From Candidatus Binatia bacterium (GTDB lineage Bacteria > Desulfobacterota > Binatia > UBA12015): DNA of 64,000 nt. This document shows positions 4,806 to 56,811 of this stretch, piece after piece. Position 1 is the stretch's first letter. Each line of letters starts with the position of its first letter. The DNA lies in NCBI GenBank assembly GCA_029243485.1, contig JAQWRY010000088.1, positions 299,212-363,211 on the forward strand, in the 5' to 3' direction. The notes beneath the pieces were generated by a model. That model was not told where the DNA came from. It did no database searches and saw only the letters and a program-made list of their open reading frames with translations. The translations under genes and the position numbers were made by a program.

Positions 4806-4808
4806 CCG

Positions 4809-6257
4809 ATGAATCTCGTCACCTTGAGCCTGATTTCTCACACCAACGTCGGCAAGACGACACTCGCGCGTACGCTCTTGCGCACCGATGTCGGGGAGGT
4901 TCTCGACCAGGCGCACGTGACCGAGGTGAGCGAGGCTTACGATCTCGTGAAGACCAAGGAAGCCTGCCTGCGCCTCTGGGATACGCCGGGCCTGGGCGAT
5001 TCTGCGCGATTGGTCGGTCGACTCCAGAAGGAGGGGAACCCGCTCGGCTGGTTCCTCCATCAAGTCTGGGATCGGTATCGGGACCGCTCTCTGTTCTGCA
5101 GTCAGCAAGCCGTCCGCAACATCCAACGCGAGGCCGACGTCGTCCTCTACCTCGTGAACACTTCGGAGGAGCCGGAGGAGGCCGGCTACGTGCCGCACGA
5201 GATGGAGCTCCTCGGTTGGATCGGGAAGCCGGTGCTCGTACTGCTGAACCAGACGGGCATCGCAGGGTCCGAGCGCGATGAGGCGGCCTTCCAGCAGTGG
5301 ACGGCCGCGGTGAAGCCCTGGCCGATCGTGCGCGACGTACTTCCGCTCGACGCGTTCACGCGCTGTTGGGTGCAGGAGGGCGTGTTGCTCGAGCGCGTTG
5401 CGGGGATCATCGACGGAGAGCCGCACGAGACCATGCAGGACCTCGCCAGCGCATGGGAGCGCGGGAACCTCTCCATCTTCGAGCGCGCATGCAGTCAGGT
5501 AGGACGGTACGTGCTGACGGCTGCGCTCGACCGCGAGACGCTCACGGGGCAGGGCCTGGGGCAAACGGAGAAGCGACGCGCGATGCGCGTCCTCGCGCAG
5601 CGGTTGGACGACACGACCCGCAGGTTGATGGACAGTCTCATCGCCGACCACGGTCTGGTCGGTCGCTATCAAACGGACGCGCGCGAGCGCCTCGAACAAG
5701 ACTTCGATTCGCCGGGCGAGAAGGCGTGGACGTCCGGGCGCGCCGGCGTTCTCGGCGCCGCGATGGGCGGTGCCGCGGGCGGTCTGGTTGCCGACGTCGC
5801 CGTGGCCGGATTGTCGTTTGGCGGCGGTGCGGTTGCCGGCGCCTTGCTCGGTGCCGCCGGTGCTATGGGGCTCCGCAGGGGGTTTCAGTTCGTAAGAGCC
5901 GAGCAGACGCCTGAGGTTCGGTGGGCGGCGGAGTTCCTCGACCAACTCCTGCGGCAGTCGCTTCTGCGGTATCTGGCGGTGGCCCATTTCGGTCGCGGCC
6001 GCGGGGAATGGCGCGAAACGGGCAATCCCGAGCGGTGGAACGCCCTTGTGGAAGCTGCGATTTCCGGCGCGGGCGATCAGTTCTCGGAGCTGACCACCCG
6101 GCTGCGGGGCGCCGGCGAGGAGCCCCCCGGTATGGAGGACCAGTTCTCCACTTACGTCCGGCATGTGCTCACAGAAGTGCTTTCCACAGCCTATCCGCAG
6201 GCTGCGCACATCCTGCGGACAACCCAATCCGCAGCGAATTCTGGGGAGAATTCCTGA
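4809..6257 (+). CDS. MMR_HSR1-type GTPase with a DUF3482-like C-terminal domain
   Basis: The P-loop is HTNVGKTTL and the G3 motif is WDTPGLGD. A C-terminal Gly/Ala-rich hydrophobic segment reads GVLGAAMGGAAGGLVADVAVAGLSFGGGAVAGALLGAAGAMG. Only 4 nt separate it from the upstream membrane-protein gene. Confidence 0.85.
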   Translation: MNLVTLSLISHTNVGKTTLARTLLRTDVGEVLDQAHVTEVSEAYDLVKTKEACLRLWDTPGLGDSARLVGRLQKEGNPLGWFLHQVWDRYRDRSLFCSQQAVRNIQREADVVLYLVNTSEEPEEAGYVPHEMELLGWIGKPVLVLLNQTGIAGSERDEAAFQQWTAAVKPWPIVRDVLPLDAFTRCWVQEGVLLERVAGIIDGEPHETMQDLASAWERGNLSIFERACSQVGRYVLTAALDRETLTGQGLGQTEKRRAMRVLAQRLDDTTRRLMDSLIADHGLVGRYQTDARERLEQDFDSPGEKAWTSGRAGVLGAAMGGAAGGLVADVAVAGLSFGGGAVAGALLGAAGAMGLRRGFQFVRAEQTPEVRWAAEFLDQLLRQSLLRYLAVAHFGRGRGEWRETGNPERWNALVEAAISGAGDQFSELTTRLRGAGEEPPGMEDQFSTYVRHVLTEVLSTAYPQAAHILRTTQSAANSGENS

Positions 6258-6300
6258 TCGGCACTTTCGGAGCGGCCTCCCGAATGGCAAAAATGCCTTT

Positions 6301-8463
6301 GTGAAGACGATTCTCAGTCAGTTCTGTGAGGACTTCGATGGTCGGGTCCGTCCCCTCCTCGAGCCGCTCGATGGATTCGCCGCCCAAATCGGTCGCCTGC
6401 CCGCCGATTCGCCCCTGAAGCAGCTCCTCCCCGAAGTCATCGATGTCCGCCACCAGCTGCGGACCCTGGTCGAGAAAGTCGCCGAGCAGCAGGCCTACGT
6501 CATCATCTTCGGACCCCTGAAGAGCGGGAAGTCGACCCTCATGAACGCGCTCGCCGCGGCCTACGTGAGTGAGGTGACGACTCTCCCGGCGTATCCCTGC
6601 ATGGTCTACGTCGCGAACGGGGATGACGAGCAGTTCACGGTCACGCGCTACGACGGGAGCGTCGACAAGTTCGGCGACCTCGCGTCGATGCGCTCCCTCA
6701 TGGAAACCGCGCACGGCGAACTCGCCGGCTCGATCCGCGAGGTTGAAGGGCACGGCGAGGATTTCGATCCCGCGAGCCACATGCCGCAGGCGCTTCGCCG
6801 AGTCGACGTGCGGATGCCGACCGAGCCGCTGGCCGAATCCGGCGCGGTTCTGGTCGACACGCCCGGGCTCTATAGCCGCATGAAGTTCGGTTACGACCTC
6901 ATGACCCGCGAGTTTCGGGACTCGGCGGCGAGTGCGATCTTCGTCGTGAAGACGGACAGCCTGTTCCTGGAGCAGGTATTCGATGAGTTCTCGGATCTCC
7001 TCCGCCTCTTCAGCCGGATCTTCCTGATCGTGAACCTCGACGGCACAAAGCAGGATCTGCAGCCCGATGGCGAGCTCGGCCCGAGTCTCGAGCGGCGTGA
7101 CCCGCAGCGCATCATCGACGCGTTCGAGAGCCTCTCGATGAATGTGGAGCTGAAGTCGGCGTGGGAAGAGGGCCGTCTGCGCATCTATCCGATCGATCTC
7201 CTGCAGGCCGCGAGTAGGCGTCTGCGTGGCGACGAACCTGATGAGGCGACGGAGGAGTCCGCTGCGGAAGAGCAGGCCGGGAATACGCTGGCCTCGTTCG
7301 GTGGCTTCACGGACGACCTCACGCACTATCTGAACAGCACTGAGTACATGACTGCGTTCCTCGGAGACAGTCTTCGCCAGGCGGAGTACCTCGTGCATGG
7401 GCTCGAGTCCGTGTGCGCCTCGGAACCGGTGCACGAGCTGTCTGAGGGGCTGGAAAAGTGGGACGCCGAACGCGATTGCGCACAGACGCTTCTCGCAGCG
7501 GTCCGCCGGTTGCAGGCGTTCCCGTGGGACGAGACATTGGCCCGCATGCGCGAGGACGTCGTTCGGATCACTCGCGAGCGGATTGGCGACTTGCGCCGCG
7601 ATACGGCCGAGGCGGCGGAAGGCGCTCTCGCACGTTGGTACGATGGTGACGCGAGCTACGCGAGCTTGATTCGCGAGGATCTCGAAGGTGTTCTGGCGAC
7701 CTGCCGCGACGCGATGGTGGAGACGGCAAGCGACGTCTCGGCGACCGTGCTCTCGAGCGACGTCGCCGGTGCGATGGTACGGAGCGAAACTAGTGACGAC
7801 CTGAATCTGGTCGGCCTCTCGGTGGCTGGAATCGCACGGGAGCTCGAAGGAACGGTGCGGTCCGCCGCCGAGGATCGTCAGGTGACGCCCGAGATCCCGA
7901 CGCGCGCGATTCCCGTCCGTCGGCGTCTGGTCGATTGGTTGTTGCTGCGCAGTCAGGCTTCGGTACGCCGTAGTGTGTTCGGCCCCGACGATGCGCCGTC
8001 CCGCCCGATTCCGCGAATCGTGAAGCAGCGGCGTCTCGGTGCCGGCCGCGTGGCACTTGGTGAGGCGATCCGTAGCCGAATCGATCGCCTCTTCGCCGAG
8101 ACGTTGCACCGCGTGGGCTCCGAGGTATACGGCGCGCATGTTGCCGCCGTTTGCCGCCAGGTCGAAGAGCGTCTCCAGACGCTCGAAAAGGAGAACGTGG
8201 CCCGGCTGGCGACGGCCGAGCAGCATCGCCAGGTGCTCGCTGCGTTGCGCTCGGACGTGGACGCCCTTGCGGGTACTCTGGGTGAAGCGAGTCAGGCGAT
8301 TGCGAGTCTCGCGGCCGCGTACGGTGAGCCCATTCCCGAGCGTGAAGCCGATCCGCTGGAGTTGGTGGAAGAGGTCGGCGTGCCCGAAGAGGCCACGCCG
8401 GATCTCCGGGCCGCGGCCGCGGCGGCTGGCGCCGGGCCCTCCGGCGATTCGAACGACAGCTGA
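6301..8463 (+). CDS. Bacterial dynamin-like protein (dynamin-family large GTPase)
   Basis: It has the dynamin-type G1 motif IIFGPLKSGKSTLMNAL and G3 motif VLVDTPGL, followed by a long helical stalk region, for ~720 aa in total. There is no in-frame ATG after the upstream stop, so the start is either the GTG at 6301 or the upstream ATG at 6163, which would overlap the preceding gene by 95 nt. Confidence 0.8.
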   Translation: MKTILSQFCEDFDGRVRPLLEPLDGFAAQIGRLPADSPLKQLLPEVIDVRHQLRTLVEKVAEQQAYVIIFGPLKSGKSTLMNALAAAYVSEVTTLPAYPCMVYVANGDDEQFTVTRYDGSVDKFGDLASMRSLMETAHGELAGSIREVEGHGEDFDPASHMPQALRRVDVRMPTEPLAESGAVLVDTPGLYSRMKFGYDLMTREFRDSAASAIFVVKTDSLFLEQVFDEFSDLLRLFSRIFLIVNLDGTKQDLQPDGELGPSLERRDPQRIIDAFESLSMNVELKSAWEEGRLRIYPIDLLQAASRRLRGDEPDEATEESAAEEQAGNTLASFGGFTDDLTHYLNSTEYMTAFLGDSLRQAEYLVHGLESVCASEPVHELSEGLEKWDAERDCAQTLLAAVRRLQAFPWDETLARMREDVVRITRERIGDLRRDTAEAAEGALARWYDGDASYASLIREDLEGVLATCRDAMVETASDVSATVLSSDVAGAMVRSETSDDLNLVGLSVAGIARELEGTVRSAAEDRQVTPEIPTRAIPVRRRLVDWLLLRSQASVRRSVFGPDDAPSRPIPRIVKQRRLGAGRVALGEAIRSRIDRLFAETLHRVGSEVYGAHVAAVCRQVEERLQTLEKENVARLATAEQHRQVLAALRSDVDALAGTLGEASQAIASLAAAYGEPIPEREADPLELVEEVGVPEEATPDLRAAAAAAGAGPSGDSNDS

Positions 8464-8583
8464 GCACGCGCGTTCGCGGCGTGGGGCCTCCGGGCCCCGC
8501 GGGCGGAGGGAGCATCCAGCGCGGCGGCGTCCGCGTCCCGGTACGCCGCCGAGGCACCGAACAACTTCCAGTGAAAGGATCTC

Positions 8584-8820
8584 GTGGCGGCCTTCCTGAC
8601 AGGGATTCCCGGCGTGAACGAGGACGTCGACACCTCGCTTCGCGCGATGATGGGCGCGGTCTGCCACACGGGGCTCGGGATCTGCGAAGCCGGCGACGCC
8701 CCATCGGGGGACGAGGAGTTCACGGATGGGGCGTTCATCGAGGCCGGGATGTTCCCCGACGTGTTTCCCTATCTGAACACGCCGCCTCCCGGCCCCCCGA
8801 ACGGCGAAGGCCAGACCTGA
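8584..8820 (+). CDS. Small acidic hypothetical protein (78 aa)
   Basis: A GTG start is preceded by AAAGGA 7 nt upstream. Third-position GC is very high, as in the surrounding genes. It lies immediately downstream of the dynamin-like gene, and no family is recognised. Confidence 0.4.
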   Translation: MAAFLTGIPGVNEDVDTSLRAMMGAVCHTGLGICEAGDAPSGDEEFTDGAFIEAGMFPDVFPYLNTPPPGPPNGEGQT

Positions 8821-9202
8821 GTCGTGGGATCAACCGATGTCGATTCCGCGCGGAGGATTCCTTTGACTCATTCCGTCTCGATCCGCGCTACTGGCGCGGA
8901 TATGACGACGCCTACGCCGAGGTCGCCGCCGTCTCCGGTGCCCGCCGCGACCGCCGACGGCAGCGCCGGTGTTCCCGCGATGCCCGCGGGCTCTTCACCT
9001 ACCTGCAGTCGCGCGCCTACCAGAGCTTTGCCGCCGAGTCGGGCGTACACCCCACGAACGCACCGCACATGACGTCGGTGCGGACGTTCCTGAATCCGTC
9101 GCTCGAGGCGTCGCTCGCAAGTGACGCCTCGTCCCATCCCGTCGCAGCGGCGGCGGTAAAGGAACTCTACGGCGCGGATGGAATGCTCTGGGGAGTGTCG
9201 GT

Positions 9203-9574
9203 ATGGTGTGGCGCGTATGCGATTCTGAGAACTGCGACTTCTTCCCTCTTTCGGACTGCGGCTGGAAGGCCCTGGGCAATCCCCCCGGCAGCAGGGGCCA
9301 CAAGTGCCGTGGGAGCCACGAAGGCTACGAAAGTTGTAAAGTGCTTCTCAAGGAGAACGTCATCAAGGCCACATGCAAGGACTCGACCGTGCTCAATTTT
9401 GGGTCTCCAGCGTCTACGTACGGCGCTGCGTGGGCGATTGTTTGGGTTGGTCAGTCTTACTGCGCTCGGGTGAACGCAGCGACGAACCCCATCCGCGTGA
9501 AAGACGAGCCGGGCTATTGGAAGGCGGTCCATGCCGAAGTCACGGAGGCTTGTCCGCCGATGAATCCGAACTAG
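9203..9574 (+). CDS. Cysteine-rich hypothetical protein (123 aa)
   Basis: The product has 8 Cys (CDSENCDFFPLSDC...CRGSHEGYESC...C...C...C). The gene sits in a locally lower-GC stretch while keeping elevated third-position GC in this frame. It may be the C-terminal part of a longer frameshifted gene; see the findings. Confidence 0.4.
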   Translation: MVWRVCDSENCDFFPLSDCGWKALGNPPGSRGHKCRGSHEGYESCKVLLKENVIKATCKDSTVLNFGSPASTYGAAWAIVWVGQSYCARVNAATNPIRVKDEPGYWKAVHAEVTEACPPMNPN

Positions 9575-9618
9575 GGAGGGGAAAGTTCTAGGTTGTGATC
9601 CATGGTAGGAAGCAAGCC

Positions 9619-9864
9619 ATGAGCAATCCGGTAGACGCGCTGGTTCTCGACTTGCTCGAGTGGATCGACCCGGAGTCTCGCCCGTACTCGGAAGTCATCG
9701 ATGCGTGGCGGACCTCCTGCCCGCGACTGCCCGTCTGGGAGGAAGCCAACGGCCGCGGATTTCTCGAACGGCGCCACGAGTCCGGGGGCAGGACGTCCGT
9801 AGGCGTGTCGGCTCTCGGTCGGCGGCACCTCAGAACCGCGAGAACACCCCTCCGTGCCGAGTGA
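9619..9864 (+). CDS. Small hypothetical protein (81 aa)
   Basis: An ATG start has AGGAAG 7 nt upstream. The product reads MSNPVDALVLDLLEWIDPESRPYSEVIDAWRTSCPRLPVWEEANGRGFLERR..., and its stop overlaps the start of the downstream SDR gene. Confidence 0.4.
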   Translation: MSNPVDALVLDLLEWIDPESRPYSEVIDAWRTSCPRLPVWEEANGRGFLERRHESGGRTSVGVSALGRRHLRTARTPLRAE

Positions 9865-12639: not shown

Positions 12640-14163
12640 TCAGCCCTCCGGGGCCCAGTCCGGCGAGACGCGGTACGCCCGGTACACGTTCACAGAGAGT
12701 GTACCGGTCGGCAATTGCAGGGTGATCAGCGGTTCGAACGGAGATACGAACTCCCAAACGATCTCTCCGTCGCGCGTGACCTCGAACATGCGTCCGGAGT
12801 TGCCCTCATCGATGAACGTGTTGCCGCCCGGCAGCCGCTGCGAGCTGCTCAGGTTGAACGCATAGAAGCGCGGCGTGCCGTCCGCTCCTGCGGTCGGCTG
12901 CTCGTACGACCACACGGCCTCCCGGGTTGCGGGGTCGACTTCTAGAATGCGGGAGTAGCCGCGGTCGTACAAATTGCTGGTGAGCGCGCCGCTCGCGTCC
13001 CGACCGAAGCCGGCCGCACTGCCGTTGTCGAAGACCAGGATGTTCCCTTCGCCGGGCAAGCCAAAGGGGATCATGTGCGGGTGGTGCTGGCCGCTGATCG
13101 GCCCGAAGGTGACGTCGTCGAAGTACGGACCAAGTCGCCAGACCACGTTCCCCGCCGACCAGTCGCCGTCCGGGTGGTCGTGCCGCGCGACGATGAACAG
13201 GAGGGCCCCTTGCCGAGAGCCCACCAGCACGTTGTCGGGATGAAATCGCTCGTCGCACTCGCTCGAGCCGGGCTCGCGGCAATGACGGTTCGGGCCGAGG
13301 TACGAGACCGCGTTCAAGAGGAGCCAGCCCTGGCCAGGAGGAGCGGGGACGTCCGGAGGGGCGAGGCCGCCAGCGAACAACGTGATAGCCGCGCGCGCGT
13401 CGGCATCGAAGCCCAGCTCGTCGATGTGGTCTGCGCCGAGCCACTCCCACAAGAGCGTTTTTCCGTCCGCCGCCATCTCGACGATCGACTCTTCGCCGAC
13501 GTCCATGCCGCCGACTGCCGCCGATTGCTCCGGTGTCAGGTCGGCGTGGGCGAGGAACAGAACGCGACCGTCGCCGCGGCTCTCCGTGATCTCGGGAGTC
13601 CAATAGACAGGGGTGTTCCACACCTGAAGGTCGTGGTGGGCGAGGGCCGACGGCCGCCCTTCATCGGTCGTTCCGTATTGCAGAGGGTTCAGCTCGCCAC
13701 CGCACTCCGCTCCGGGGGGCGCTTCGTTGGGCCATACGGCGCCACCGTCCCAATCAAGGATGGCGACGCAAGGGGAGCGGAAGTCGACGAGGCTAGGGAG
13801 TGTCGTCGGGCCGGGGTGCTCGATCGTTCCGAGTACGTGGCCAGGCTCGGGCATGGGCTCGCCATCGGCTCCGCTCGTCGACCAGGAGTTGAGAAACCGC
13901 CCGAGTCCATCGACGAGATACAAGCCCGAGTCCTCGGCGGAGAGGACGTTGAAGAGCGTGTATCGCGTCTCCGCCGGCGCGCCGTCACTGAGTGTCACGC
14001 ACGCGGTCGACGTCTCCGGGGAGCATCCGGAGAGGTCGCGACGTGCGATCGGCTCTGTCGGCTCGAGCGGCTGCTCGTCCGTTGCGATCGTCGTGTCGGA
14101 ACAGCCGGTTGCGAGAAGAGACGCTGCGACGCAGAGGAGAAGGCTCGATTGGAGGGGCGTCAC
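12640..14163 (-). CDS. Secreted lipoprotein, likely beta-propeller-type (a possible arylsulfotransferase-like enzyme is speculative)
   Basis: It has a signal peptide and a lipobox (LLATGC). The product is 507 aa and rich in Gly, Asp and Trp repeat-like segments. The family cannot be assigned without a search. Confidence 0.6.
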   Translation of the reverse strand: MTPLQSSLLLCVAASLLATGCSDTTIATDEQPLEPTEPIARRDLSGCSPETSTACVTLSDGAPAETRYTLFNVLSAEDSGLYLVDGLGRFLNSWSTSGADGEPMPEPGHVLGTIEHPGPTTLPSLVDFRSPCVAILDWDGGAVWPNEAPPGAECGGELNPLQYGTTDEGRPSALAHHDLQVWNTPVYWTPEITESRGDGRVLFLAHADLTPEQSAAVGGMDVGEESIVEMAADGKTLLWEWLGADHIDELGFDADARAAITLFAGGLAPPDVPAPPGQGWLLLNAVSYLGPNRHCREPGSSECDERFHPDNVLVGSRQGALLFIVARHDHPDGDWSAGNVVWRLGPYFDDVTFGPISGQHHPHMIPFGLPGEGNILVFDNGSAAGFGRDASGALTSNLYDRGYSRILEVDPATREAVWSYEQPTAGADGTPRFYAFNLSSSQRLPGGNTFIDEGNSGRMFEVTRDGEIVWEFVSPFEPLITLQLPTGTLSVNVYRAYRVSPDWAPEG

Positions 14164-14552
14164 AGGTCATACGTACCACAGGGTCTGTCGAGTGCCGTAG
14201 CGGTGCGGACCCCGCGACACCTTGGCGCCACCGAACCGAGCGCGCTCACTTCGGGGGGAGGCTGCGCCCTCCGGGCGGCTTCGTCATGAGACGGCCTCTC
14301 GAGAGCCGCCGCGCAGCACCCAGACGAGCAGCCGCGCGACGCTCTCTCGAGCGCCGCGCGGCCTTCGCGGAGGCCCAGTGCCTCCAAGCTCGGAGGACAC
14401 CGTCCCCGGTGAGCATCGCTTTGAATCCGGCCGCGTCCTTCTGCGGATACCCTGAACCACCGTAGCCGGCCCGCCGGTCACCTCGTTCACGCAATGGACG
14501 TCGATCCCGGTGCGCGTGTTGTGGTTGGTTTTGAAGCCGCTCGCCACCCGAC

Positions 14553-24587: not shown

Positions 24588-25656
24588 TTACTTGGACGCC
24601 CGAGGCTTGCACGCTTTCTGTCTCGTGAGCCAGCTGGGCGCCCATCTCAGGCGCTTTCTTCCGATGCCGATGCCGATGCCATCGCGCCACTCGAGCACGC
24701 GTTCGCGGTTCGCGGCCGCGCGCTCGGGGTGCAGGTGGGACACGTCGGTCTTCTCCTCGGGGTCGGCCTTCGTGTCGAAGAGCATCTGGCGGTTCAGCAT
24801 TCCGCCCCAGGGGATGTAGTACCAATCCCCTTCCCGCAGGTAGTACGCGTCGCCCTTGTAGTGCGTGTACGGATTCGGTTTGCGGTCGTCGCCGAGGACG
24901 AACTGTCCGCCGGAAGGTGGCCGGGCCAGCTGAAGACAAGCGGGGTTCGGAACCCCAGCTCGTGCATCGAAGACTTCCCGCGCCGCCCGCCGAGGTGCAC
25001 GGGCACTGCTTGATCGTGTGGCTGAGCCCACCCGTTGTCGGAGAGGTAGACGATGAGAGTGTTCTTGCGGAGGTTCTCGTCGTCGAAAAAATCCAAGAGC
25101 CGGCCGACGACGGCGTCTTCCCACGTGCAGTTCGCATAAGAGCAGCGAGCTCCCTCGACGGCGTCTCTGGCTCGGTAGCGATTGTAATACGCCGGTGGCG
25201 CGTTGTGGGGCGTGTGGGGGAGCTGCGGCGCGAACCACAAGGACAACGGCCCGTCGCGATGCGCCCCCAAGAACTCGAAGGCGGGATCGAGCGTCCGGCG
25301 CCCGATCCCGCGGCCCGCGGTGGTCGTCGCCGAGCATCACGACGATGTTGGGACGATCGGTCGCTTGGGGACTGTCTCCCCATACGTCACCGCGGTAAAG
25401 AGAGTGGGGACGAGCCCGGTGAGGTATGCGGCAGAGGAGCTTCGGTGTTCCAGAGAATCTGCGCGAATGGGGCTGCGATCCCCGCCAGTAAGCCGAGGTA
25501 CTTGAAGCCGGCGAGGATCCCGATCGTGAAGACGATCGACACCGTGAGCCACCGTTTCGGGTGGGGGCTCCGGAGCATCCCGGGCAGGAGCGCGTAGTTG
25601 ATCCCGATTTCTGCGAGAAGGAGGAGCAGGTACGGCGCAAGCCGCAGGAAGTACAA
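24588..25656 (-). pseudogene. Sulfatase-family gene with N-terminal TM segments, disrupted by several frameshifts
   Basis: Sulfatase blocks fall in different reverse-strand frames. These are PNIVVMLGDDHRG, VYLSDNGW...GGRRGKSSMHELGFRTP, and the C-terminal LFDTKADPEEKTDVSHLHP box. A hydrophobic N-terminal ORF (MYFLRLAPYLLLLLAEIG...) lies upstream. Confidence 0.6.
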
Positions 25657-25822
25657 GAGAAGGCTCGTCAGCAGCGGTCCTGCTTACCGCGAACGGGAGC
25701 CGCACCTGCTGCAGGCCCCGCTACGTGTCGAAGAGGCCGGCCTCGATCAGTGCGTGCGAGGTGACGATTTCGTCAGCGGAGATCCCGACCGCGTGCAGCG
25801 GAAGCGCGAGCATGTGGCGAAG

Positions 25823-25833
25823 CCCCCCCCCCC
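25823..25833. repeat. C11 homopolymeric tract
   Basis: Eleven consecutive C residues sit within the decayed region upstream of the degraded sulfatase. Confidence 0.9.
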
Positions 25834-26249
25834 GTGATCGCTTTGCCCGCCGTTGGCATGGAGAGTGAGTCTCCGAGGTACACCAGCCTCGGCGGGCCTA
25901 AGTACTTGAGTTGTTTTGCAATGTGCCGGGTGACGGACGACTGCACGTCCCGCGCGACCCTGGTTCTTTGGCTGGCGGCGACTTCGCTTGCGTCGAGGAC
26001 CGACAGGAGGAGCTAGCCCGTCCCGAGAAAGCCGCCGGTGGCGCAGAGGGGCCCGACGAAGAATCGACCGATTTCACCAGTCGGTGCGCTCCAGGCGTGA
26101 GGCTGGTGCTGTGAGGAAGAAGACAAAGGAAGAGGACAGAGTGCAGTTCCGGCTGCGTTCCTGCCAACGCACGGGCGGCCCGCTGACGTTTTGCACTCGA
26201 CGCGGGCTCGGGTGGGGATTACATAGGCGGCTTACCAAGGAGCCAGCAC

Positions 26250-33661: not shown

Positions 33662-33749
33662 ATCTCGTGCACGCTAGTGGTCGGCGATCGTGCTCGCAAA
33701 AGGCGACGGTTGCCCCGGCACGAGGCATCGGCCATGGTTTCGGGCCCAC

Positions 33750-35162
33750 ATGCCAGTCCAATTCCAAGGGCGACGCCTCCTCGCCGGCTTGTTCTTGCTC
33801 GCCTGCGCGTGCACGACGCCGGATCCGGGTCCGCCGGCGCAGCCGAACGTCCTCCTCGTTTCGATCGACACGCTGCGCAGCGATCACCTCGGCGCGTACG
33901 GCTACGACCGCGATACGAGCCCAGTGCTGGACCGGCTCGCCGCGGAGGGCGCGCTATTCGAGTCCGTCGTCGCGTCGTCGTCGTGGACGCTGCCGTCGCA
34001 CACGACGCTCCTCACGGGACTCCCGCCCGAGCTGCACGGCGTGGACACCTCCGAGGAACGTCTCCTGACGGAAGCGACGACGCTCGCCGAGGTGCTGCAC
34101 GAGCGCGGCTACGCGACCGCCGGGTTCGCTTCGGGGCCCTACCTCCGGGCGATGTACGGACACGATCAGGGCTTCGACACGTACGACGAGAGCACCGTCT
34201 GGCCCGAAGACGACATTCACAGAAAGCCGACCTCGCCACAGCTCGAGACGCTTGCCGTAAACTGGCTCGACGCCTGGCACGTGAAGGAGGACGAAAAGCC
34301 CTTCTTCGTGTTCTTGCACATGTGGGATCCGCACTACGACTTCTCCCCGCCGCCGCCCTACGACATCATGTTCGACCCGGAATACGAGGGCACCGTCACC
34401 GGTGACGACTTCGCCGGGACCGACCAGGTGCACAAGGACATGGCCGCGCGGGACCTCGAGCACGTCCTCGCACTCTACGACGGAGAGATCCGCTACACCG
34501 ACGAACACCTGGGCCGGATTCTCGCCGCCCTCGAACGGCTCGGCGTGTACGACGACACCATCGTCGTCGTCACGAGCGACCACGGCGAGGAGTTCTTCGA
34601 GCACGGCAAGAAGGGACACTCGAAGGGCCTCTACGACGAGGTGGTGAAGATCCCGTGGGTCGTTCGCTACCCGCGCCGCATTCCCGCAGGACAGAGGATC
34701 GGGAACCAGGTGCGTTCGATGGACGTCGCACCGACCATCCTCGGACTCGCCGGCATCGAACCGCCGCAGGGCTTCGGCAGCGGTTCCGCGAACCCGTACC
34801 GGGAGCACGATCTGAGTGGCTGGATCACCGGGGCCCGCAAGGTCGCCTCGTTCCCGGATCTCACCGCCTTCAGTCACGAGACGATGTGGGCCCACCGCGT
34901 CTCGGTGCAAACCCCCAAGCAGAAGCTCATCGTGATTCGCACGCCGAAGGGCCGGACGGTCGAGTTCTACGACCTTGCAAACGACCCGGGCGAGAAGCAG
35001 GATCTCACGGCCGGCGGCCCGGTCCAGGGAAAAGGCCGGGCGCTGCTCGGCTCCCTGCGTGCCTGGGACCAGCATTGGAAGGGGCGCGCGCCTCTTTCGG
35101 CCCCGATCGAGCTGGATCCGAAGCACGTCGAGCAGCTCCGGGCGCTCGGCTATGTGGAGTGA
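33750..35162 (+). CDS. Sulfatase-like hydrolase/transferase (alkaline phosphatase superfamily) with a non-canonical active site; probable lipoprotein
   Basis: It has the metal-binding N-terminal block NVLLVSIDTLRSDHLGAYGY and the C-terminal blocks VVVTSDHGEEF and GLYDE. The canonical CxPxR position reads T-L-P-S-H. Signal peptide: LLAGLFLLACAC. Confidence 0.8.
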   Translation: MPVQFQGRRLLAGLFLLACACTTPDPGPPAQPNVLLVSIDTLRSDHLGAYGYDRDTSPVLDRLAAEGALFESVVASSSWTLPSHTTLLTGLPPELHGVDTSEERLLTEATTLAEVLHERGYATAGFASGPYLRAMYGHDQGFDTYDESTVWPEDDIHRKPTSPQLETLAVNWLDAWHVKEDEKPFFVFLHMWDPHYDFSPPPPYDIMFDPEYEGTVTGDDFAGTDQVHKDMAARDLEHVLALYDGEIRYTDEHLGRILAALERLGVYDDTIVVVTSDHGEEFFEHGKKGHSKGLYDEVVKIPWVVRYPRRIPAGQRIGNQVRSMDVAPTILGLAGIEPPQGFGSGSANPYREHDLSGWITGARKVASFPDLTAFSHETMWAHRVSVQTPKQKLIVIRTPKGRTVEFYDLANDPGEKQDLTAGGPVQGKGRALLGSLRAWDQHWKGRAPLSAPIELDPKHVEQLRALGYVE

Positions 35163-48055: not shown

Positions 48056-49030
48056 TCAGCGCTTGGTGCCGCGCGTCGGGCGCTTGAGGGCGCGCGTTTT
48101 TGGAACGGATCGGAGTGCCGGGCGCGCCGTCTTGGCGTGGGCGAGAGACGTCTTCTCACGCTTACGGTGTTCTTCGAGACCGAGCAGGTCGTTGAATTTC
48201 TCGAACGGGTAGAGCTGCTTCATGATCGAGCCCGTGTTGCCGCGGTGGATGAGCGTGGAGTACACGTCGCCGATCGCCTTGGCCTGCGCGAGAATCGCGG
48301 CGACCGGAAAGACGATGAGGTCGAACCCGCGTTGGTGAAGTTCGGCCGGCCCCAGCAGCGGGGTCTTTCCCCACTCGACCATGTTCGCGACCTTCGGTCC
48401 GGGGATGCCCATCGCGATCGCGTCGAGTTCGGCGACGGATTGCGGTGCTTCGACGAAGACGGCATCCACGCCGACATCGAGAGCGGCGCGCCCGCGGCGG
48501 ATCGCCTCTTCGAGTCCGAGTGGGGCGCGCGCGTCGGTGCGTGCGACGACGAAGAGATCGGTTTTCGGTCGCAGTTCGACGACGGCGCGTAGCTTCGCGA
48601 GCCAGTCGGCGCGATCGACGACGGCTTTTCCGACCATGTGCCCGCAGCGTTTCGGCCAGACCTGATCTTCGAGGAAGATGCCGGCCGCTCCGGCCTGGGC
48701 GTAGAGTTCCGCAGTGCGCACGGCGTTCGGGATCCCGCCGTAGCCCGTGTCGGCGTCCACGAGGACGGGCATGGAGACGAGCCGGCAAAGGCGTCGAGCT
48801 GCGTCGGCCATCTCGGCTTGAGTGAGCAGCCCGATGTCGGGCTCGCCCAGAAGGGAGGCAGCGACGGCGTAGCCACCCATGAAGGCCAGCGGGAATCCGG
48901 CCTTCTCCGCCAGGCGCGCCGAGACGCCGTCGTGGAGTCCGCCCATGACGATGGGCTCTCCGCGCTTCACGAGCGCGCGCACGGCCGCGGCCGGGGGCCG
49001 CGGCGCGGTGGCTGAGGTGTTCTTCGCCAT
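48056..49030 (-). CDS. Isocitrate lyase/PEP mutase family protein (methylisocitrate lyase or carboxy-PEP mutase-like)
   Basis: Conserved ICL/PEPM blocks are present (PIVMGGLHDGVSARLAEKAGF, VLVDADTGYGG, IFLEDQVWPKRCGHM, RTDA). The gene ends in an unusual 35-aa Lys/Arg-rich C-terminal tail. Confidence 0.85.
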   Translation of the reverse strand: MAKNTSATAPRPPAAAVRALVKRGEPIVMGGLHDGVSARLAEKAGFPLAFMGGYAVAASLLGEPDIGLLTQAEMADAARRLCRLVSMPVLVDADTGYGGIPNAVRTAELYAQAGAAGIFLEDQVWPKRCGHMVGKAVVDRADWLAKLRAVVELRPKTDLFVVARTDARAPLGLEEAIRRGRAALDVGVDAVFVEAPQSVAELDAIAMGIPGPKVANMVEWGKTPLLGPAELHQRGFDLIVFPVAAILAQAKAIGDVYSTLIHRGNTGSIMKQLYPFEKFNDLLGLEEHRKREKTSLAHAKTARPALRSVPKTRALKRPTRGTKR

Positions 49031-49081
49031 GGTCCAAAAGCCTAGGGCTCGGCGTCCGGTCCGGCAAGCGGACGGGCGGTC

Positions 49082-49501: not shown

Positions 49502-50172
49502 GGTTTGGTGATTAGCCGAAATCCTGCAGCGGGGCGATCCTCTTTCAACGTCTCCTCGACCCATTCGTCGATGAGCGCTCGAAACGTATTCAGAAAATCT
49601 TCCTCCGCTTCGGGCGCGAGGTCGTCGAGTTCGTGTGGGTCGATGTCGATCGCGTAGAGCTGCTCGCGGTCGCTCTTGATGTCTTGGATGTACCGCCACT
49701 CGGGTGTCGTGACGACGCGGCCTCAGGAGCGAAGTGCATCGCTGCCGATCTGGGTTACGACGGCTTCTTTGGGGTTCTCCAGCGCGCCCCCCGGAGGCGA
49801 GGAGGGGGAGCAGGGATTGGCCGGGGATGTCCCACCGGCCGGGGAGGGAGGCGCCGGCGATCTGCGTTAGGGTGGCGTAGACGTCGGCGAGCGTGACGAG
49901 GTCCGCGTAGCGCCGGCCCTACTTTGCATCCCCTCGGCGGTGTGGGTACGCGGGATTGAAATCGTCGCGAGCGGTCTCGGCGAAGCCCCAGTCCTGTGGG
50001 CTGTACGTCTAGAGCTTGTCGAGCGTCGGCGTGATTACGCGGTCGTTCCCGAGGAAACCGAAGCCGCTCCACCCCATGTCGCCGCCGACGACCACGGCGA
50101 TGTTCGGCGGTTCACATGCAGTGCAGAAGACGAGGGAGGCGAGGATCAGGGTGCGCACGAGGCGGAGCATCG
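49500..50172 (-). pseudogene. Decayed sulfatase gene (in-frame stops and frameshifts)
   Basis: Reverse-strand sulfatase blocks are interrupted by stops. These are a signal peptide MLRLVRTLILASLVFC, the N-terminal PNIAVVVGGDMGWSGFGFLGN, and the C-terminal LYAIDIDPHELDDLA box. Confidence 0.5.
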
Positions 50173-50214: not shown

Positions 50215-51606
50215 CTACTGCAGGTACCCGAGGGACTGAAGCCTCTTCTCGACGCTCCGGCTCCGCTCGATCGCGTCGGCGTCTCCGGTTGTCTCGCCGT
50301 GACCGGCCATCCACGCGTGGAGGCCGTCCTGAAGCCGACGGTTTTCGTCCGGATGCGTGCTGGAAGCGTCGCTGCGCTCGAACGGATCGGCGTGGAGGTC
50401 GTAGAGTCGGCTAGCGCCGTTCTGAAGATCGAAGATCAGCTTGAAGCGTCCGTCGTCGACGCTGCGTCTCACCCCCTGGGAGCTGAAGGCGAGGCGAGGG
50501 TCGTTCGACGTGCCTTCGAGGAGCGGCCGCAGGCTCTCTCCTTCGAGCGCGTCCGTGGGGAGACCCGCGTAGTCGAGCACCGTGGGCATGACGTCGAGGT
50601 TTTCGACGGCGATGTCGACGCGCCGGCCTCCCGTAAGGCCGGGAATCCAAACCATGAGCGGGGTGCGGGTCACCGTGTCCCACACGCCCAGGCAGTGGTT
50701 GAGCTCGTCTTGCTCGAGGAACATCTCGCCGTGGTCCGAGGCGAGAATCACGATCGACTTCCTGAGGAGACCTCGCCCGTCGAGACTGCGGAGCAACCGT
50801 TCGATCTCGCCGTCGAGGTAGAGGATCTCTTCGTCGTAGCGATCGGAGAGGAAGGGGAGCTGATCGAGACTCACGTCTCGCTGGCCCGGCGGGCGCCCGC
50901 GGTGCAGGCGAATGATCGGGTCGGGGTCGCCGCTGCGCAGCCACACGGGCAGGCCCTTGTCGTCGCCGGCGGTGAACTTCCGGGTGTGGTGGCGCGGTGG
51001 GAGGTACGGGTGATGCACGTCCATGTAGTGGAGATAGAGGAAGAACGGGCCCGTCGTTTCCTTGAGGTGTTTCATCGCGCGTTGGTGCAGGCAGCGGGCG
51101 TTCTGCCTCGTGCAGGACTCGTCGTCGAAGACGTCGAAGCCGCGACCGAAGCCGCCGGTCCGGTTTATGTTCGACGGTGTCTTGCGCACGATCTCGCTGG
51201 CGGAAACCGCGATGGTGCGGAGGCCGGCCGCCTGCAGCGCCTCGGGTAGCGTCTGCATGCTCTCGGGAATTGCGAACGATTTACTACTCCAGCTCAGAAG
51301 CTCGGCCGGGTAGCGCGACGTCAGCAGGGAGGCGACCGAGGTCGGAGTGCAGGCGGTCTGACTGCGCGCCCGCTCGAAGACCGTCGCGCCATTCGAACGG
51401 GCCTCCAGAGCCGGCGTCGTCGCACGGTCGTAACCGTAAACGCTCATCCGATCCGCTCGCAGGGTGTCCGCGAGGAGGAGGATCACGTTCCAGGGCCCCT
51501 CGGGGGGAGGTGCCGGCCTGTCGAGATACGTTCGCAATCCGAACGCCGCGGTGCCGAGGATCGCGAAGGCGATCGCCGCCGCGATGATGGGGTTTCGTCT
51601 CTGCAT
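50215..51606 (-). CDS. Sulfatase-like hydrolase/transferase with a variant active-site motif
   Basis: It has the N-terminal block NVILLLADTLRADRMSVYGY and the C-terminal blocks ILASDHGE and LYDLHADPFE. The CxPxR position reads C-T-P-T-S, so the Arg is missing. The start is taken at MQRRNPII. The longer ORF adds a histidine-kinase N-box-like segment upstream. Confidence 0.8.
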   Translation of the reverse strand: MQRRNPIIAAAIAFAILGTAAFGLRTYLDRPAPPPEGPWNVILLLADTLRADRMSVYGYDRATTPALEARSNGATVFERARSQTACTPTSVASLLTSRYPAELLSWSSKSFAIPESMQTLPEALQAAGLRTIAVSASEIVRKTPSNINRTGGFGRGFDVFDDESCTRQNARCLHQRAMKHLKETTGPFFLYLHYMDVHHPYLPPRHHTRKFTAGDDKGLPVWLRSGDPDPIIRLHRGRPPGQRDVSLDQLPFLSDRYDEEILYLDGEIERLLRSLDGRGLLRKSIVILASDHGEMFLEQDELNHCLGVWDTVTRTPLMVWIPGLTGGRRVDIAVENLDVMPTVLDYAGLPTDALEGESLRPLLEGTSNDPRLAFSSQGVRRSVDDGRFKLIFDLQNGASRLYDLHADPFERSDASSTHPDENRRLQDGLHAWMAGHGETTGDADAIERSRSVEKRLQSLGYLQ

Positions 51607-55042: not shown

Positions 55043-55054
55043 GATGGAGCTGTC

Positions 55055-55567
55055 GTGGCTGCCCGTTCCTGGTCCGGTGTTTCGCACCCGTTCATGCGCC
55101 CTGCTGGCCGTCCCGGCGTCTCGAGGATTCTCGACGGGCGCCTTCTCATCGGGGAGTACCCGACGCCGGACGACATCGATTGGCTTCGCGACGAACACGG
55201 CATCCAGGCCGTCGTGTCGCTGCAGGACGACATCGATCTCACCTACAAGAGCATCGACCTGCCGTCGCTCGAAGGTGCGTACGCAAAGGCGGGAATTCCG
55301 CTCCATCGGTTCGGGGTGATCGATGGCGATCCGGATGATTTGATCCCGTCGCTCGAGGCGATCCTCGCGAGGCTGCACGAGCTGCTCGGCGAGAACCGTC
55401 GGGTGTACGTTCACTGCAACGCCGGCTACAACCGGGCGCCCAGCGTGGCGATCGCCTATCTGCACGCGCACCATGGGCTGTCGCTGGACGAGGCCCACTC
55501 GTTCGTCAGAGAACGACGGGCCTGTGCGCCTTACCTGTCGGCGCTCAGACGACACTTCGACCAGTGA
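55055..55567 (+). CDS. Dual-specificity/protein-tyrosine phosphatase-like protein
   Basis: It has the CX5R P-loop VHCNAGYNRAP, and the 170-aa product has DUSP-like spacing. Confidence 0.8.
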   Translation: MAARSWSGVSHPFMRPAGRPGVSRILDGRLLIGEYPTPDDIDWLRDEHGIQAVVSLQDDIDLTYKSIDLPSLEGAYAKAGIPLHRFGVIDGDPDDLIPSLEAILARLHELLGENRRVYVHCNAGYNRAPSVAIAYLHAHHGLSLDEAHSFVRERRACAPYLSALRRHFDQ

Positions 55568-55573
55568 GCGCGC

Positions 55574-56580
55574 CTACGGGCGGAGCGCGTCGAGTCGAGC
55601 GAGCATGTCGGCCTGCACGGCGGCGTACGCGGGGTTGCCAGCGACGTTCGTGATCTCGTCGGGGTCGAGGGCGAGGTCGTATAGTTCGGTGTGCAGGGGA
55701 TTCCCGGCCGTCGCGATGCCCACGAACTCGGCGAGGGTATCGGAGGACGCATGGGACCCGGATCGACTCCTCGTACGGGTTGAACTTTCCGACAAGCCCG
55801 TGTTCTCCCCACATGAACCCGTGGTCGGACGTGAAGACTACGACCGTGTTGTCCGAGAGCCCCAGCTTCTCGAATTGTTTGAGGATGCGATCGACGGCCT
55901 CGTCGACCGCCAGGAGAGTGCGGTGTTGGTCGAGTCTGAGGGCGTCGATCTTCCCCGGAAGCGCCGGACCCGCGATGAATCGGAAGAACTGGACCCATTG
56001 CGGTTTCGCGGTGACGTCGGAGAAATAGCTTGGCGGCCGATGGAGCGGGTAGTTTGAGAGGTGTCCTGCATGCCGGTTGGCCGGAATCGCGGGCGCCCGA
56101 GGCGCAAACGGGGTGTAGGTCACAAGGAAGGGATCGTTCGCGTTCTTTCGGAGGAACCGGATGGCCTCCTTCTGCATCCAGTCGGTGGAGTAGGTTCCCG
56201 CGGAGAGCGTCTTGGCGAAACCGTTGTCGTTGATGCGAGCGCCGTAGAACTCACCGCCGCTCGGGTCGAGGAGCGACTTCCATTCGTGCCAGCCCTGGGG
56301 TGGGGTCAGCCCAAGGGATTCGGAGTTGTTCATGTACTTCCCGAACAGGCCGTTCGTGTAGCCGGCTCGGAGCCGAGCACGAGCTCGGTGATCTGGGCGG
56401 GCGTGGTCCCGGCGCACGGGGGGAAGCCCGGGGTCGCGCAGGGAGGGCCGCCGGCCGCGAGGTGAAGAAGGCGGCAACTCAGATCGTCCTGGACCAACTG
56501 CCCGAGGTCCTGCAGATCGCCGGCTTCCGTGCACCGCGCGTCGGCCGCGGTGGGCGTCAGAGCCAAGAGGAGCAATAGGT
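55574..56580 (-). pseudogene. Frameshifted sulfatase gene
   Basis: The middle sulfatase block (VVFTSDHGFMWGEHGLVGKFNPYEESIRVP) and the C-terminal box (LYDLALDPDEITNVAGNP) sit in different frames. The signal peptide and N-terminal region lie in a third frame. Confidence 0.5.
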
Positions 56581-56811
56581 AGGGCGGTCGAGAAGGCGGC
56601 CGCCGCGGGGCCCAGCATGAGGACCTCCCCGGTCCGGATATGCAGGCATACGGCCAGTGGGCATTACGCCGAGGTGTTCAGATGCAGCACAATCGTGTTT
56701 CTCCTAGGCCGCGTTCGAGGCCGGGAGGCCGCACTGGCGGGCGCCCGAGCGGTCCCCGGGTGCGGCGGCCGCAGGCGCTCGTTACGCAAAAGGGCAGGAG
56801 GAGAGACCTGA

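Follow-up and report, generated by a model that had tools for sequence, protein, structure and literature searches.

We analysed a 64,000-nucleotide window of an uncultured Candidatus Binatia bacterium (contig JAQWRY010000088.1, positions 299,212 to 363,211; G+C content, 65%) whose sulfatase-family content consists of two intact PF00884 genes, S1 and S2, and three sulfatase remnants, A, B, and C. An earlier note, made from the letters alone, had placed five sulfatase-family loci in this window, and all five are present. We propose, at a probability of roughly 0.7 and on the strength of the alignments described below, that S1 and S2 are threonine-type phosphodiesterases, phosphomonoesterases, or phospho-headgroup transferases that have been mislabelled "sulfatase," because they would neither make nor need formylglycine, and that the other three loci are dead Cys-type sulfatases. 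That S1 or S2 is a formylglycine sulfatase appears very unlikely from the residues at their active sites. The clade to which both belong appears to combine the two-domain scaffold of type-I sulfatases with the catalytic residues of Thr-nucleophile phosphoryl-transfer enzymes.

Active-site residues of S1 and S2

S1 matches PF00884 at 173 bits (E=1e-50), has a third-position G+C content (GC3) of 0.87, and is 100% identical to database protein P0001, recorded as "sulfatase [Candidatus Binatia bacterium]." Its longest open reading frame (ORF) begins at 33690, and the start at 33750 matches P0001. A lipobox, L-L-A-C, lies at 33795-33806, and the product is therefore a predicted lipoprotein. S2 matches PF00884 at 145 bits (E=3.5e-42), has a GC3 of 0.845, and is 100% identical to P0121, recorded as "sulfatase" and with its start at 51606. 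The features of the two genes are as follows.

33750..35162, + strand: S1, intact threonine-type PF00884 protein, 470 aa, predicted lipoprotein
33864..33884, + strand: N-terminal metal block of S1, I-D40-T-L-R43-S-D45 (40-sequence alignment)
33987..34001, + strand: nucleophile loop of S1, T80-L-P82-S-H84, with invariant W79 before T80 (aligned to 5g2v and EptA)
34317..34334, + strand: H190-M-W-D193-P-H195 block of S1 (40-sequence alignment)
34578..34619, + strand: D277-H278-G-E-E-F-F-E-H285-G-K-K288-G-H290 block of S1 (40-sequence alignment)
50215..51606, - strand: S2, intact threonine-type PF00884 protein, 463 aa, the most divergent of its family
51334..51351, - strand: loop of S2, C86-T87-P88-T89-S90-V91, with Thr87 at the nucleophile position
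50692..50736, - strand: D291-H292-G...H304-C305 block of S2, in which the His at +12 is kept and the family E-H-G reads E-Q-D

The authors of a sulfatase classification published in 2016 found Cys or Ser at the nucleophile of the motif [CS]-x-[PA]-x-R in 100% of 4058 sulfatases (PMC5066984). In AtsA numbering, the sulfatase residues are Cys51, Arg55 (99%), Lys113 (94%), and His115 (81%), together with His211 (99%), Asp317 (99%), and Lys375 (96%); His in place of Asn318 is also common in true sulfatases (PMC5066984). Thr replaces Cys/Ser in 30 of 59 PF00884 seed proteins; Thr cannot yield formylglycine, and such PF00884 proteins are, according to the same authors, not to be called sulfatases (PMC5066984).

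The earlier note had read T-L-P-S-H of S1 as standing where sulfatases have C-x-P-x-R, and both the alignment to a solved sulfatase and the close homologues bear this out. When S1 was aligned by phmmer to the GlcNAc-6-sulfatase 5g2v, "sswTLPSHttlltg" fell on "alSGPSRacILTG" (the deposited 5g2v sequence has Ser at the formylglycine position), which places Thr80 on the formylglycine and His84 on the Arg. T-[LVIT]-P-[AST]-H is found in every one of the 120 closest homologues of S1 (46-65% identity). S1 keeps G120-Y-A-T123 of the sulfatase pattern G-Y-x-T...G-K-x-H, and Ser128 and Pro130 fall on the Lys and His of G-K-W-H in 5g2v, the positions of Lys113 and His115; within the family, Pro130 hardly varies. 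At the catalytic Lys of 5g2v, S1 has Ser291, beside invariant His290 and with conserved Lys288 nearby. In the 40-sequence S1-family alignment, W79, T80, P82, H84, H190, D193, H195, D277, H278, G279, E281, F282, H285, and H290 are invariant, as are R43 and D45, and D40 is at least 90% conserved. Of the metal ligands Asp13-Asp14 and Asp317-Asn318 of the SulfAtlas S1 family, S1 has two, as Asp40 and Asp277; the second Asp is replaced by Thr/Ser at position 41, and Asn318 by His278. His195, which is invariant, is the counterpart of sulfatase His211.

For S2, the same note had claimed that the Cys is kept and that Ser replaces the Arg, a reading that proved to be one residue out of register. Counting back from the S-L-L-T-[GS]-R anchor, whose L-L-T-[GS] is common to all sulfatases, puts Thr87 in the nucleophile column and Cys86 at position -1. 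The phmmer alignment to 4upl ("ICGSSR") places Thr87 on the Cys and Val91 on the Arg, in agreement with the alignment to 4upi; the S2-family profile places the family Thr on the nucleophile Thr of Escherichia coli EptA; and T-L-P-S-H of S1 aligns to t-f-p-s-v of the S2-family profile. Because four independent alignments put Thr87 at the nucleophile position, S2 is, as far as alignment can tell, also threonine-type, with Val91 at the Arg position. The stretch of S2 at the Lys113/His115 region, read by eye only, is G-L-R-T-I-A-V-S-A-S-E. Both proteins have the D-T-L-R-x-D block at the N terminus, as the note had reported, and a D-H-G block.

The loop of S2 is unusual within its own family, in which the consensus is C-T-F-P-S-V-N-S-L-L-T-S-R (Cys in 120 of 120 members, Thr in 120 of 120, Pro in 119 of 120). 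C-T-P-T-S-V is unique to S2 among these 120 relatives, F88P and P89T each occurring once. This swap moves the Pro to two residues past Cys86 and thereby creates C-T-P, a superficial mimic of the C-x-P maturase core, which probably misled the first reading. The same observation, made in S2 alone of 120 relatives, could be taken to mean that S2 is reverting to a Cys-type formylglycine-forming site, which the register used in the note would imply. However, Ser90, not Arg, stands at +4, the distance to the L-L-T-S-R anchor would be wrong by one residue, the equivalents of Lys113 and His115 are absent, and neither of the maturases FGE and anSME was found in the window, so that we consider the likelihood of such a reversion to be next to negligible.

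S2 carries 8 changes at columns that are at least 95% conserved in its family, where the median is 1 and the next highest of the 120 members has 5, and 16 changes at columns that are at least 90% conserved. These include F88P, P89T, H299Q (the His of E-H-G), R306L, and loss of the lipobox Cys. One or both proteins, chiefly S2, could accordingly be catalytically dead binding proteins (pseudoenzymes), S2 perhaps being on its way to becoming a fourth remnant; its rank as the most deviant of 120 and its position adjoining remnant C speak for this explanation. Yet the 463-codon frame of S2 is intact with gene-like GC3, and Thr87, Asp47, Asp291-His292, His198, and His304 are all kept. Its nearest relative, P0122 (52% identity), is also altered at 299 and 306, which makes part of the divergence of S2 a trait of its sub-clade, but keeps C-T-F-P-S-V. 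S1 shows no deviation (1 change at conserved columns, equal to the family median). We regard the pseudoenzyme explanation as unlikely.

In overall architecture S1 and S2 resemble type-I sulfatases, which provide their best sequence and fold matches (SulfAtlas S1 family; Pseudomonas aeruginosa AtsA, 1HDH, and Bacteroides thetaiotaomicron BT4656, 5g2v). Both combine PF00884 with an SGSH_C-like C-terminal subdomain and share the first metal Asp, the equivalents of Asp317 and His211, and a P-F-F...P-H block. The AlphaFold2 model of S1 (pLDDT 90.5) has the two-domain sulfatase fold, and its 50 best Protein Data Bank (PDB) neighbours, among the Foldseek matches listed, are all formylglycine sulfatases (16-24% identity; TM-score, 0.59-0.71). 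No solved structure represents the clade, and judged by this model its scaffold is sulfatase-like. Unlike type-I sulfatases, the two proteins have Thr for Cys/Ser, His (S1) or Val (S2) for Arg55, Ser and Pro for Lys113 and His115, and Thr/Ser for the second metal Asp, and the clade has an extra invariant His 12 residues past D-H. Phosphonate monoester hydrolases and Silicibacter pomeroyi sulfatase-family proteins (2vqr, 2w8s, 4upk, 4upl, and 4upi) are also among the best PDB sequence matches, S2 matching best to 4upl (E=9e-22) and 4upk (E=1e-16). Like S1 and S2, these proteins have D-H-G, not D-N-G, but they use formylglycine in C-x-P-x-R, which S1 and S2 cannot.

These similarities raise the question of whether S1 and S2 are real sulfatases that use unmodified Thr or a metal-bound water in place of formylglycine. 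Their closest sequence and fold relatives are all sulfatases or phosphonate monoester hydrolases, the His211 and Asp317 equivalents are kept, a Lys (K288) lies near the position of Lys375, and public records name both proteins "sulfatase." We know, however, of no native sulfatase with a Thr nucleophile, and the database names are automatic PF00884 transfers. Moreover, Arg55, present in 99% of 4058 sulfatases, Lys113 (94%), and His115 (81%) are all replaced, and the sulfatase classification excludes Thr proteins (PMC5066984). The residues that S1 and S2 keep (equivalents of the first Asp, Asp317, and His211) would be only those generic to the superfamily, and those they lose would be the sulfate-specific ones. 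Sulfatase activity by either route is, in our judgment, highly improbable. A canonical C-x-P-x-R elsewhere in the proteins would have told against a threonine-type site, as the note itself had recognized; a six-frame search of the window, S1, S2, and the remnants included, turned up no C/S-x-P-x-R...T-G motif.

Likeness to threonine-type phosphoryl-transfer enzymes and extent of the clade

E. coli K-12 EptA was aligned to both family profiles and matched that of S2 (E=1e-9 and 4e-11) and that of S1 (E=6e-5 and 2e-5). The clade Asp (D40 in S1) aligns to the Glu of EptA G-E-T-S-R, a metal ligand, and the invariant Thr of the clade aligns to the second Thr of G-T-A-T-A-V-S-V-P. S-D-H-G-E of EptA aligns to S-D-H-G-E of the clade, and the EptA His at +12 (L-H-G) aligns to the invariant clade His (K-G-H for S1 and K-H-C for the S2 family). 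EptA L-H-T-I-G-S-H-G-P-T-Y also resembles, by eye, L-H-Y-M-D-P-H-G-P-Y of the clade. We take the aligned EptA residues to be those that bind zinc and the phosphoryl group in the MCR-1 and EptA structures. The clade shares with EptA, MCR-1, and the LtaS/OpgB-type enzymes an aligned Thr nucleophile, a metal set of an acidic residue, Thr, and Asp-His, the pattern L-H-x-x-x-x-H-x-P-x-Y, and the His at +12. In alignments of 40-120 homologues (43-65% identity), the residues aligned to EptA are invariant, or nearly so in the case of the Asp. The earlier note had suggested that the intact copies may not be sulfatases, and the conserved Thr together with these EptA-like catalytic residues supports that suggestion at the level of sequence. 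Unlike EptA, with its N-terminal membrane domain of five helices, S1 and S2 lack any membrane domain (a lipoprotein signal is all that S1 carries, and S2 has one hydrophobic segment), their first ligand is Asp rather than Glu, and they carry a sulfatase-type C-terminal subdomain.

The nucleotide pyrophosphatase/phosphodiesterase (NPP) family, PF01663, has the motif T-F-P-N-H-x-x-x-x-T-G-x-x-P-x-x-H-G. The S1 loop, T-L-P-S-H-T-T-L-L-T-G-L-P-P-E-L-H-G, follows the same pattern, and both proteins pass the PF01663 cut-off of 23 bits, S1 with 51.3 bits over residues 54-299 and S2 with 26.1 bits. Both matches are overlapped by the much stronger PF00884 matches (173 bits in S1), and S1 differs from NPP in having a C-terminal half and fold neighbours of the sulfatase type.

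Taken together, these alignments suggest how S1 may work. Once exported, the lipoprotein would be located either in the periplasm or on the outer side of the inner membrane, and a divalent metal of the Zn or Mn type would be held by Asp40, Thr80, Asp277, and His278. Metal-activated Thr80 would attack a phosphate ester to form a phospho-threonine intermediate, with His195, His290, and His84 standing in for the sulfatase Lys and Arg residues and binding the phosphoryl oxygens and the leaving group. The intermediate would then be resolved by water, as in a hydrolase, or by an acceptor, as in a transferase.

S1 and S2 share 27% identity. The S2-family profile covers S1 from residue 14 right through to its C-terminal residue (272 bits), and the C-terminal end L-x-x-L-G-Y-x-E is nearly invariant in both families (116 of 120 members in the S1 family and 112 of 120 in the S2 family). 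This end corresponds to S1 residues 463-470 (35136-35159) and to the C terminus of S2 (50218-50241). On account of the end-to-end profile fit, the common C-terminal motif, and the low identity, sequence comparison identifies S1 and S2 as old paralogues in one threonine-type clade.

The clade is large. When 1.84 billion cluster representatives were searched exhaustively, there were 126,771 matches at E<=1e-3 and 31,343 at E<=1e-30, totals that include true sulfatases, and the 150th best match was still at 4e-90. The loop W-[C/S/T]-x-P was found in 137 of 146 more distant 50%-cluster representatives (the best matches of the exhaustive search, those already seen left out); all 137 have Thr, mostly in T-L-P-[SAT]-H. 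More than 573 relatives occur in species-representative genomes of Acidobacteriota, Myxococcota, Binatia, Planctomycetota, Gemmatimonadota, Eisenbacteria, Nitrospinota, and others.

Many of these proteins are anchored differently from S1. An N-terminal extension of ~200-230 residues with at least 3 predicted transmembrane segments is present in 72 of the 146 representatives and in 40 of the 120 closest homologues; other relatives have a signal peptide or lipobox. Several S1 relatives of 650-680 aa (P0068, P0257, P0258, and others) have an N-terminal domain with 4-6 predicted transmembrane segments. No Pfam family, EptA_B_N included, matched the extension. In P0255, a PMT_2 (GT-C glycosyltransferase) domain is fused to the threonine-type domain in place of the extension; P0283, P0302, and P0309 are tandem double domains, and P0299 has TPR repeats. 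With about half of the nearest relatives of S1 having a polytopic membrane domain at the N terminus, ahead of the catalytic domain, the layout resembles that of EptA, LtaS, and OpgB without homology of the membrane domains. Because this layout is that of LtaS, EptA, and OpgB, the combination of a membrane domain with an external threonine-type PF00884 domain points, by analogy, to membrane or envelope phosphate esters as substrates.

Separately, the 664-aa S1 homologue P0079 lies, at L002:3941-10040, between IS110-family transposase genes and rve_3 fragments in a symmetric, inverted arrangement, and the locus looks like a composite transposon carrying a sulfatase-like gene. A weak NCBIfam match to PhoY led to no relative of S1.

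Gene neighbourhood was considered as a clue to the substrate and was rejected, as it gave no functional hint in the window, in three long contigs with homologues (whose neighbours were unrelated), or in 80 related loci, in which all ORFs were clustered with antisense shadow ORFs set aside. Within the window, S1 is flanked by an alpha/beta hydrolase gene and leuC, and S2 by a 2-hydroxyacid dehydrogenase gene and remnant C, with an EVE-domain gene beyond.

Several observations weigh against a phosphate-ester role for S1 and S2. Their solved sequence and fold neighbours are all true sulfatases, with no phosphotransferase among them, and scores against all NCBIfam EptA, LtaS, CptA, and MCR models fall far below the cut-offs (25-39 bits versus 404-1250), the best being CptA at 39 bits (cut-off, 404) and EptA at 26-35 bits (cut-off, 561). 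No assayed or solved member of either family is available, and none specific was found in the literature. There is no conserved gene neighbourhood that hints at a substrate, no neighbour being common to more than 7 of the 80 loci. S2, without the loop Pro and one conserved His, may be impaired. Finally, the identity of the metal and the roles of the histidines come from sequence alignment only.

Three sulfatase remnants and their surroundings

To characterize the decayed loci, the reading frames of each were concatenated and searched against solved structures. The pieces of each remnant fall in two or three reading frames, and each has lost a large internal stretch by deletion. Their parts are as follows.

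24588..25656, - strand: remnant A, a dead canonical sulfatase
25314-25355, - strand: N-terminal block of remnant A, RPNIVVMLGDDHRG (R-P-N-I-V-V-M-L-G-D-D-H-R-G), from the six-frame view
24905-25282, - strand: middle part of remnant A in another frame, 6b0k match
24678-24875, - strand: C-terminal part of remnant A in the frame of the N-terminal block, from the six-frame view
55545..56618, - strand: remnant B, a dead GlcNAc-6-sulfatase-like gene
55725-56369, - strand: middle part of remnant B, 5g2v match
55577-55690, - strand: C-terminal part of remnant B in another frame, 5g2v match
49552..50170, - strand: remnant C, directly downstream of S2
50012-50170, - strand: signal peptide and PNIAVVVGGDMGW (P-N-I-A-V-V-V-G-G-D-M-G-W) block of remnant C, ending in a stop
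49799-49906, - strand: fragment of remnant C, 6hr5 match
49552-49716, - strand: C-terminal fragment of remnant C in another frame, 6hr5 match

Remnant A matches residues 190-307 of the carrageenan sulfatase 6b0k (E=5e-10). Only 31 nt separate its N-terminal block from the part corresponding to residue ~190, so that ~150 residues, the C-x-P-x-R region included, are deleted. The N-terminal block is 50% identical to P0246, a match that is not significant alone, and each piece has a GC3 of 0.82-0.93 in its own frame. In remnant B, one frame aligns to 5g2v residues 115-229 and 307-384 and a second frame to residues 472-506 (E=1e-25), and 88 residues (residues 199-286 of P0241) are replaced by 47 nt. 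In tblastn searches, P0245 and P0246, both with C-C-P-S-R, align to remnant B only from their residue 125; its N-terminal ~124 residues, including the catalytic motif, are unrecognisable and were undetected by homologues with intact N termini at E<=20. The upstream stretch has a GC3 of 0.61 in the ORF frame and of 0.8-0.97 in another. A third frame upstream of remnant B, with coding-like GC3, holds a signal-peptide-like stretch and "VQDD," which is only suggestive. Remnant C gives three collinear weak matches to the 467-residue 6hr5, at residues 28-64, 344-378, and 406-460 (combined E=5e-4), and ~280 residues are deleted, as seen by tblastn with P0241 and P0243; its GC3 is 0.78-0.94.

Across the three loci, the pieces have a GC3 of 0.78-0.94 in their own frames, compared with 0.83 +/- 0.03 for intact genes. 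The frame assignments are supported by this coding-like GC3, which also suggests that the decay is not ancient. Because the N-terminal blocks are of the D-D type and the homologues carry C-C-P-S-R, we identify A, B, and C, from these sequence features, as remnants of canonical Cys-type sulfatases and not copies of S1 or S2. A and B match different sulfatase subfamilies, and C is too fragmentary to place. The description of these loci as three decayed paralogues thus holds for the decay (frameshifts and deletions) and fails for the paralogy, as they are not recent paralogues of S1 or S2. Similarly, of the rapid birth-and-death that had been proposed, only the death is borne out, by deletions of 88 to ~280 residues that are beyond error correction; S1 and S2 are too dissimilar to represent birth, and near-identical copies are lacking. 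What the window records is the death of sulfatase genes without sign of birth.

A trivial source of such damage would be the assembly itself, the three loci being sequencing or assembly artefacts that are intact in the organism. The contig does come from a metagenome-assembled genome. However, the 88 to ~280 residues gone from each locus are not restorable by correction of single-base indels, and all three affected genes are of one family. Neighbouring Pfam-matching genes are full length and free of frameshifts (PGI, 1-486 of 486; Aconitase, 1-463 of 463; SRAP, 1-214 of 214), and because these genes span their models end to end, a general frameshift or assembly problem was rejected. We find the artefact explanation scarcely credible.

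Genes were called by third-position G+C, and the resulting ~56 ORFs were scanned against Pfam. Neither FGE (PF03781) nor anSME was found among the ~56 ORFs of the 64-kb window and two of its larger gene-free stretches that were scanned, and none of the six frames of the window contains G-N-x-W-E-W, the hallmark of FGE. The Pfam scan showed that the window encodes ordinary metabolism (PGI, leuCD, thiolase, fumarase, and lipoamide dehydrogenase/E2) as well as a P450, a MacB-type ABC transporter, two PadR regulators, and a hybrid histidine kinase.

Some other genes of the window deserve mention. A 508-residue protein encoded at 12640-14166 (- strand) weakly matches arylsulfotransferase (ASST, PF14269; 33 bits; cut-off, 27) and would be a further sulfate-ester-related gene. 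At 48056-49081 (- strand), ~0.4 kb beyond the EVE-domain gene that comes after S2 and remnant C, lies a gene of the phosphoenolpyruvate (PEP) mutase/isocitrate lyase family (PF13714; E=1e-38), some members of which work in phosphonate metabolism. A dual-specificity protein phosphatase gene (DSPc; E=9e-15) at 55043-55567 (+ strand) is convergent with remnant B, its last bases overlapping the stop region of the remnant B ORF. Directly upstream of remnant A, at 25387-25683 (- strand), a very hydrophobic ORF of 99 residues with gene-like GC3 (0.79) has no Pfam match; by eye it is like the N terminus of a membrane acyltransferase, in which case the stretch would hold two truncated genes. A dynamin-like gene pair (4806-8463) is closely followed by a short ORF at 8575-8820 (+ strand), whose match to DUF4331 is confined to the final 45 positions and falls below threshold (25.6 bits; cut-off, 27); this ORF may be another gene remnant. 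This fragment was all that turned up in the gene-free stretches 8464-9802 (forward frames) and 25357-26186 (reverse frames).

Implications for sulfatase annotation and for the lineage

The principle that Thr PF00884 proteins are not sulfatases was published in 2016; on this particular clade we found nothing published. S1 and S2 would represent a variant, as yet uncharacterised, of a type of enzyme that is already known. The names "sulfatase" and "arylsulfatase A-like enzyme" have been given to tens of thousands of proteins, from Acidobacteriota, Myxococcota, Binatia, Planctomycetota, and other phyla, that lack the residues needed for a sulfatase, and metagenome "sulfatase" counts, which are used to infer the degradation of sulfated polysaccharides, are inflated by the threonine-type clade.

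A bolder proposal is that formylglycine chemistry has collapsed lineage-wide: none of the three canonical sulfatase genes in 64 kb is alive, and the two survivors of the family would need no maturase. Separately, the surviving clade may be a large class of phosphotransferases or phosphodiesterases of the cell envelope that has gone unrecognised, given the tens of thousands of sequence clusters in the search, the unclassified polytopic membrane domain in about half of the nearest ones, and the single fusion to a GT-C glycosyltransferase. We consider these bolder proposals possible but doubtful. The presence of three dead canonical sulfatases near two live threonine-type genes yields a testable hypothesis of maturase loss. 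Should the rest of the genome be without FGE, anSME, and intact C-x-P-x-R sulfatases, it would offer a clean natural case of maturase loss driving family-wide pseudogenisation. With a sulfatase scaffold, an EptA-like, His-rich Thr site, and an NPP-like T-x-P-x-H loop, the clade could also serve as an intermediate for studying the switch between sulfate and phosphate specificity in the alkaline-phosphatase superfamily.

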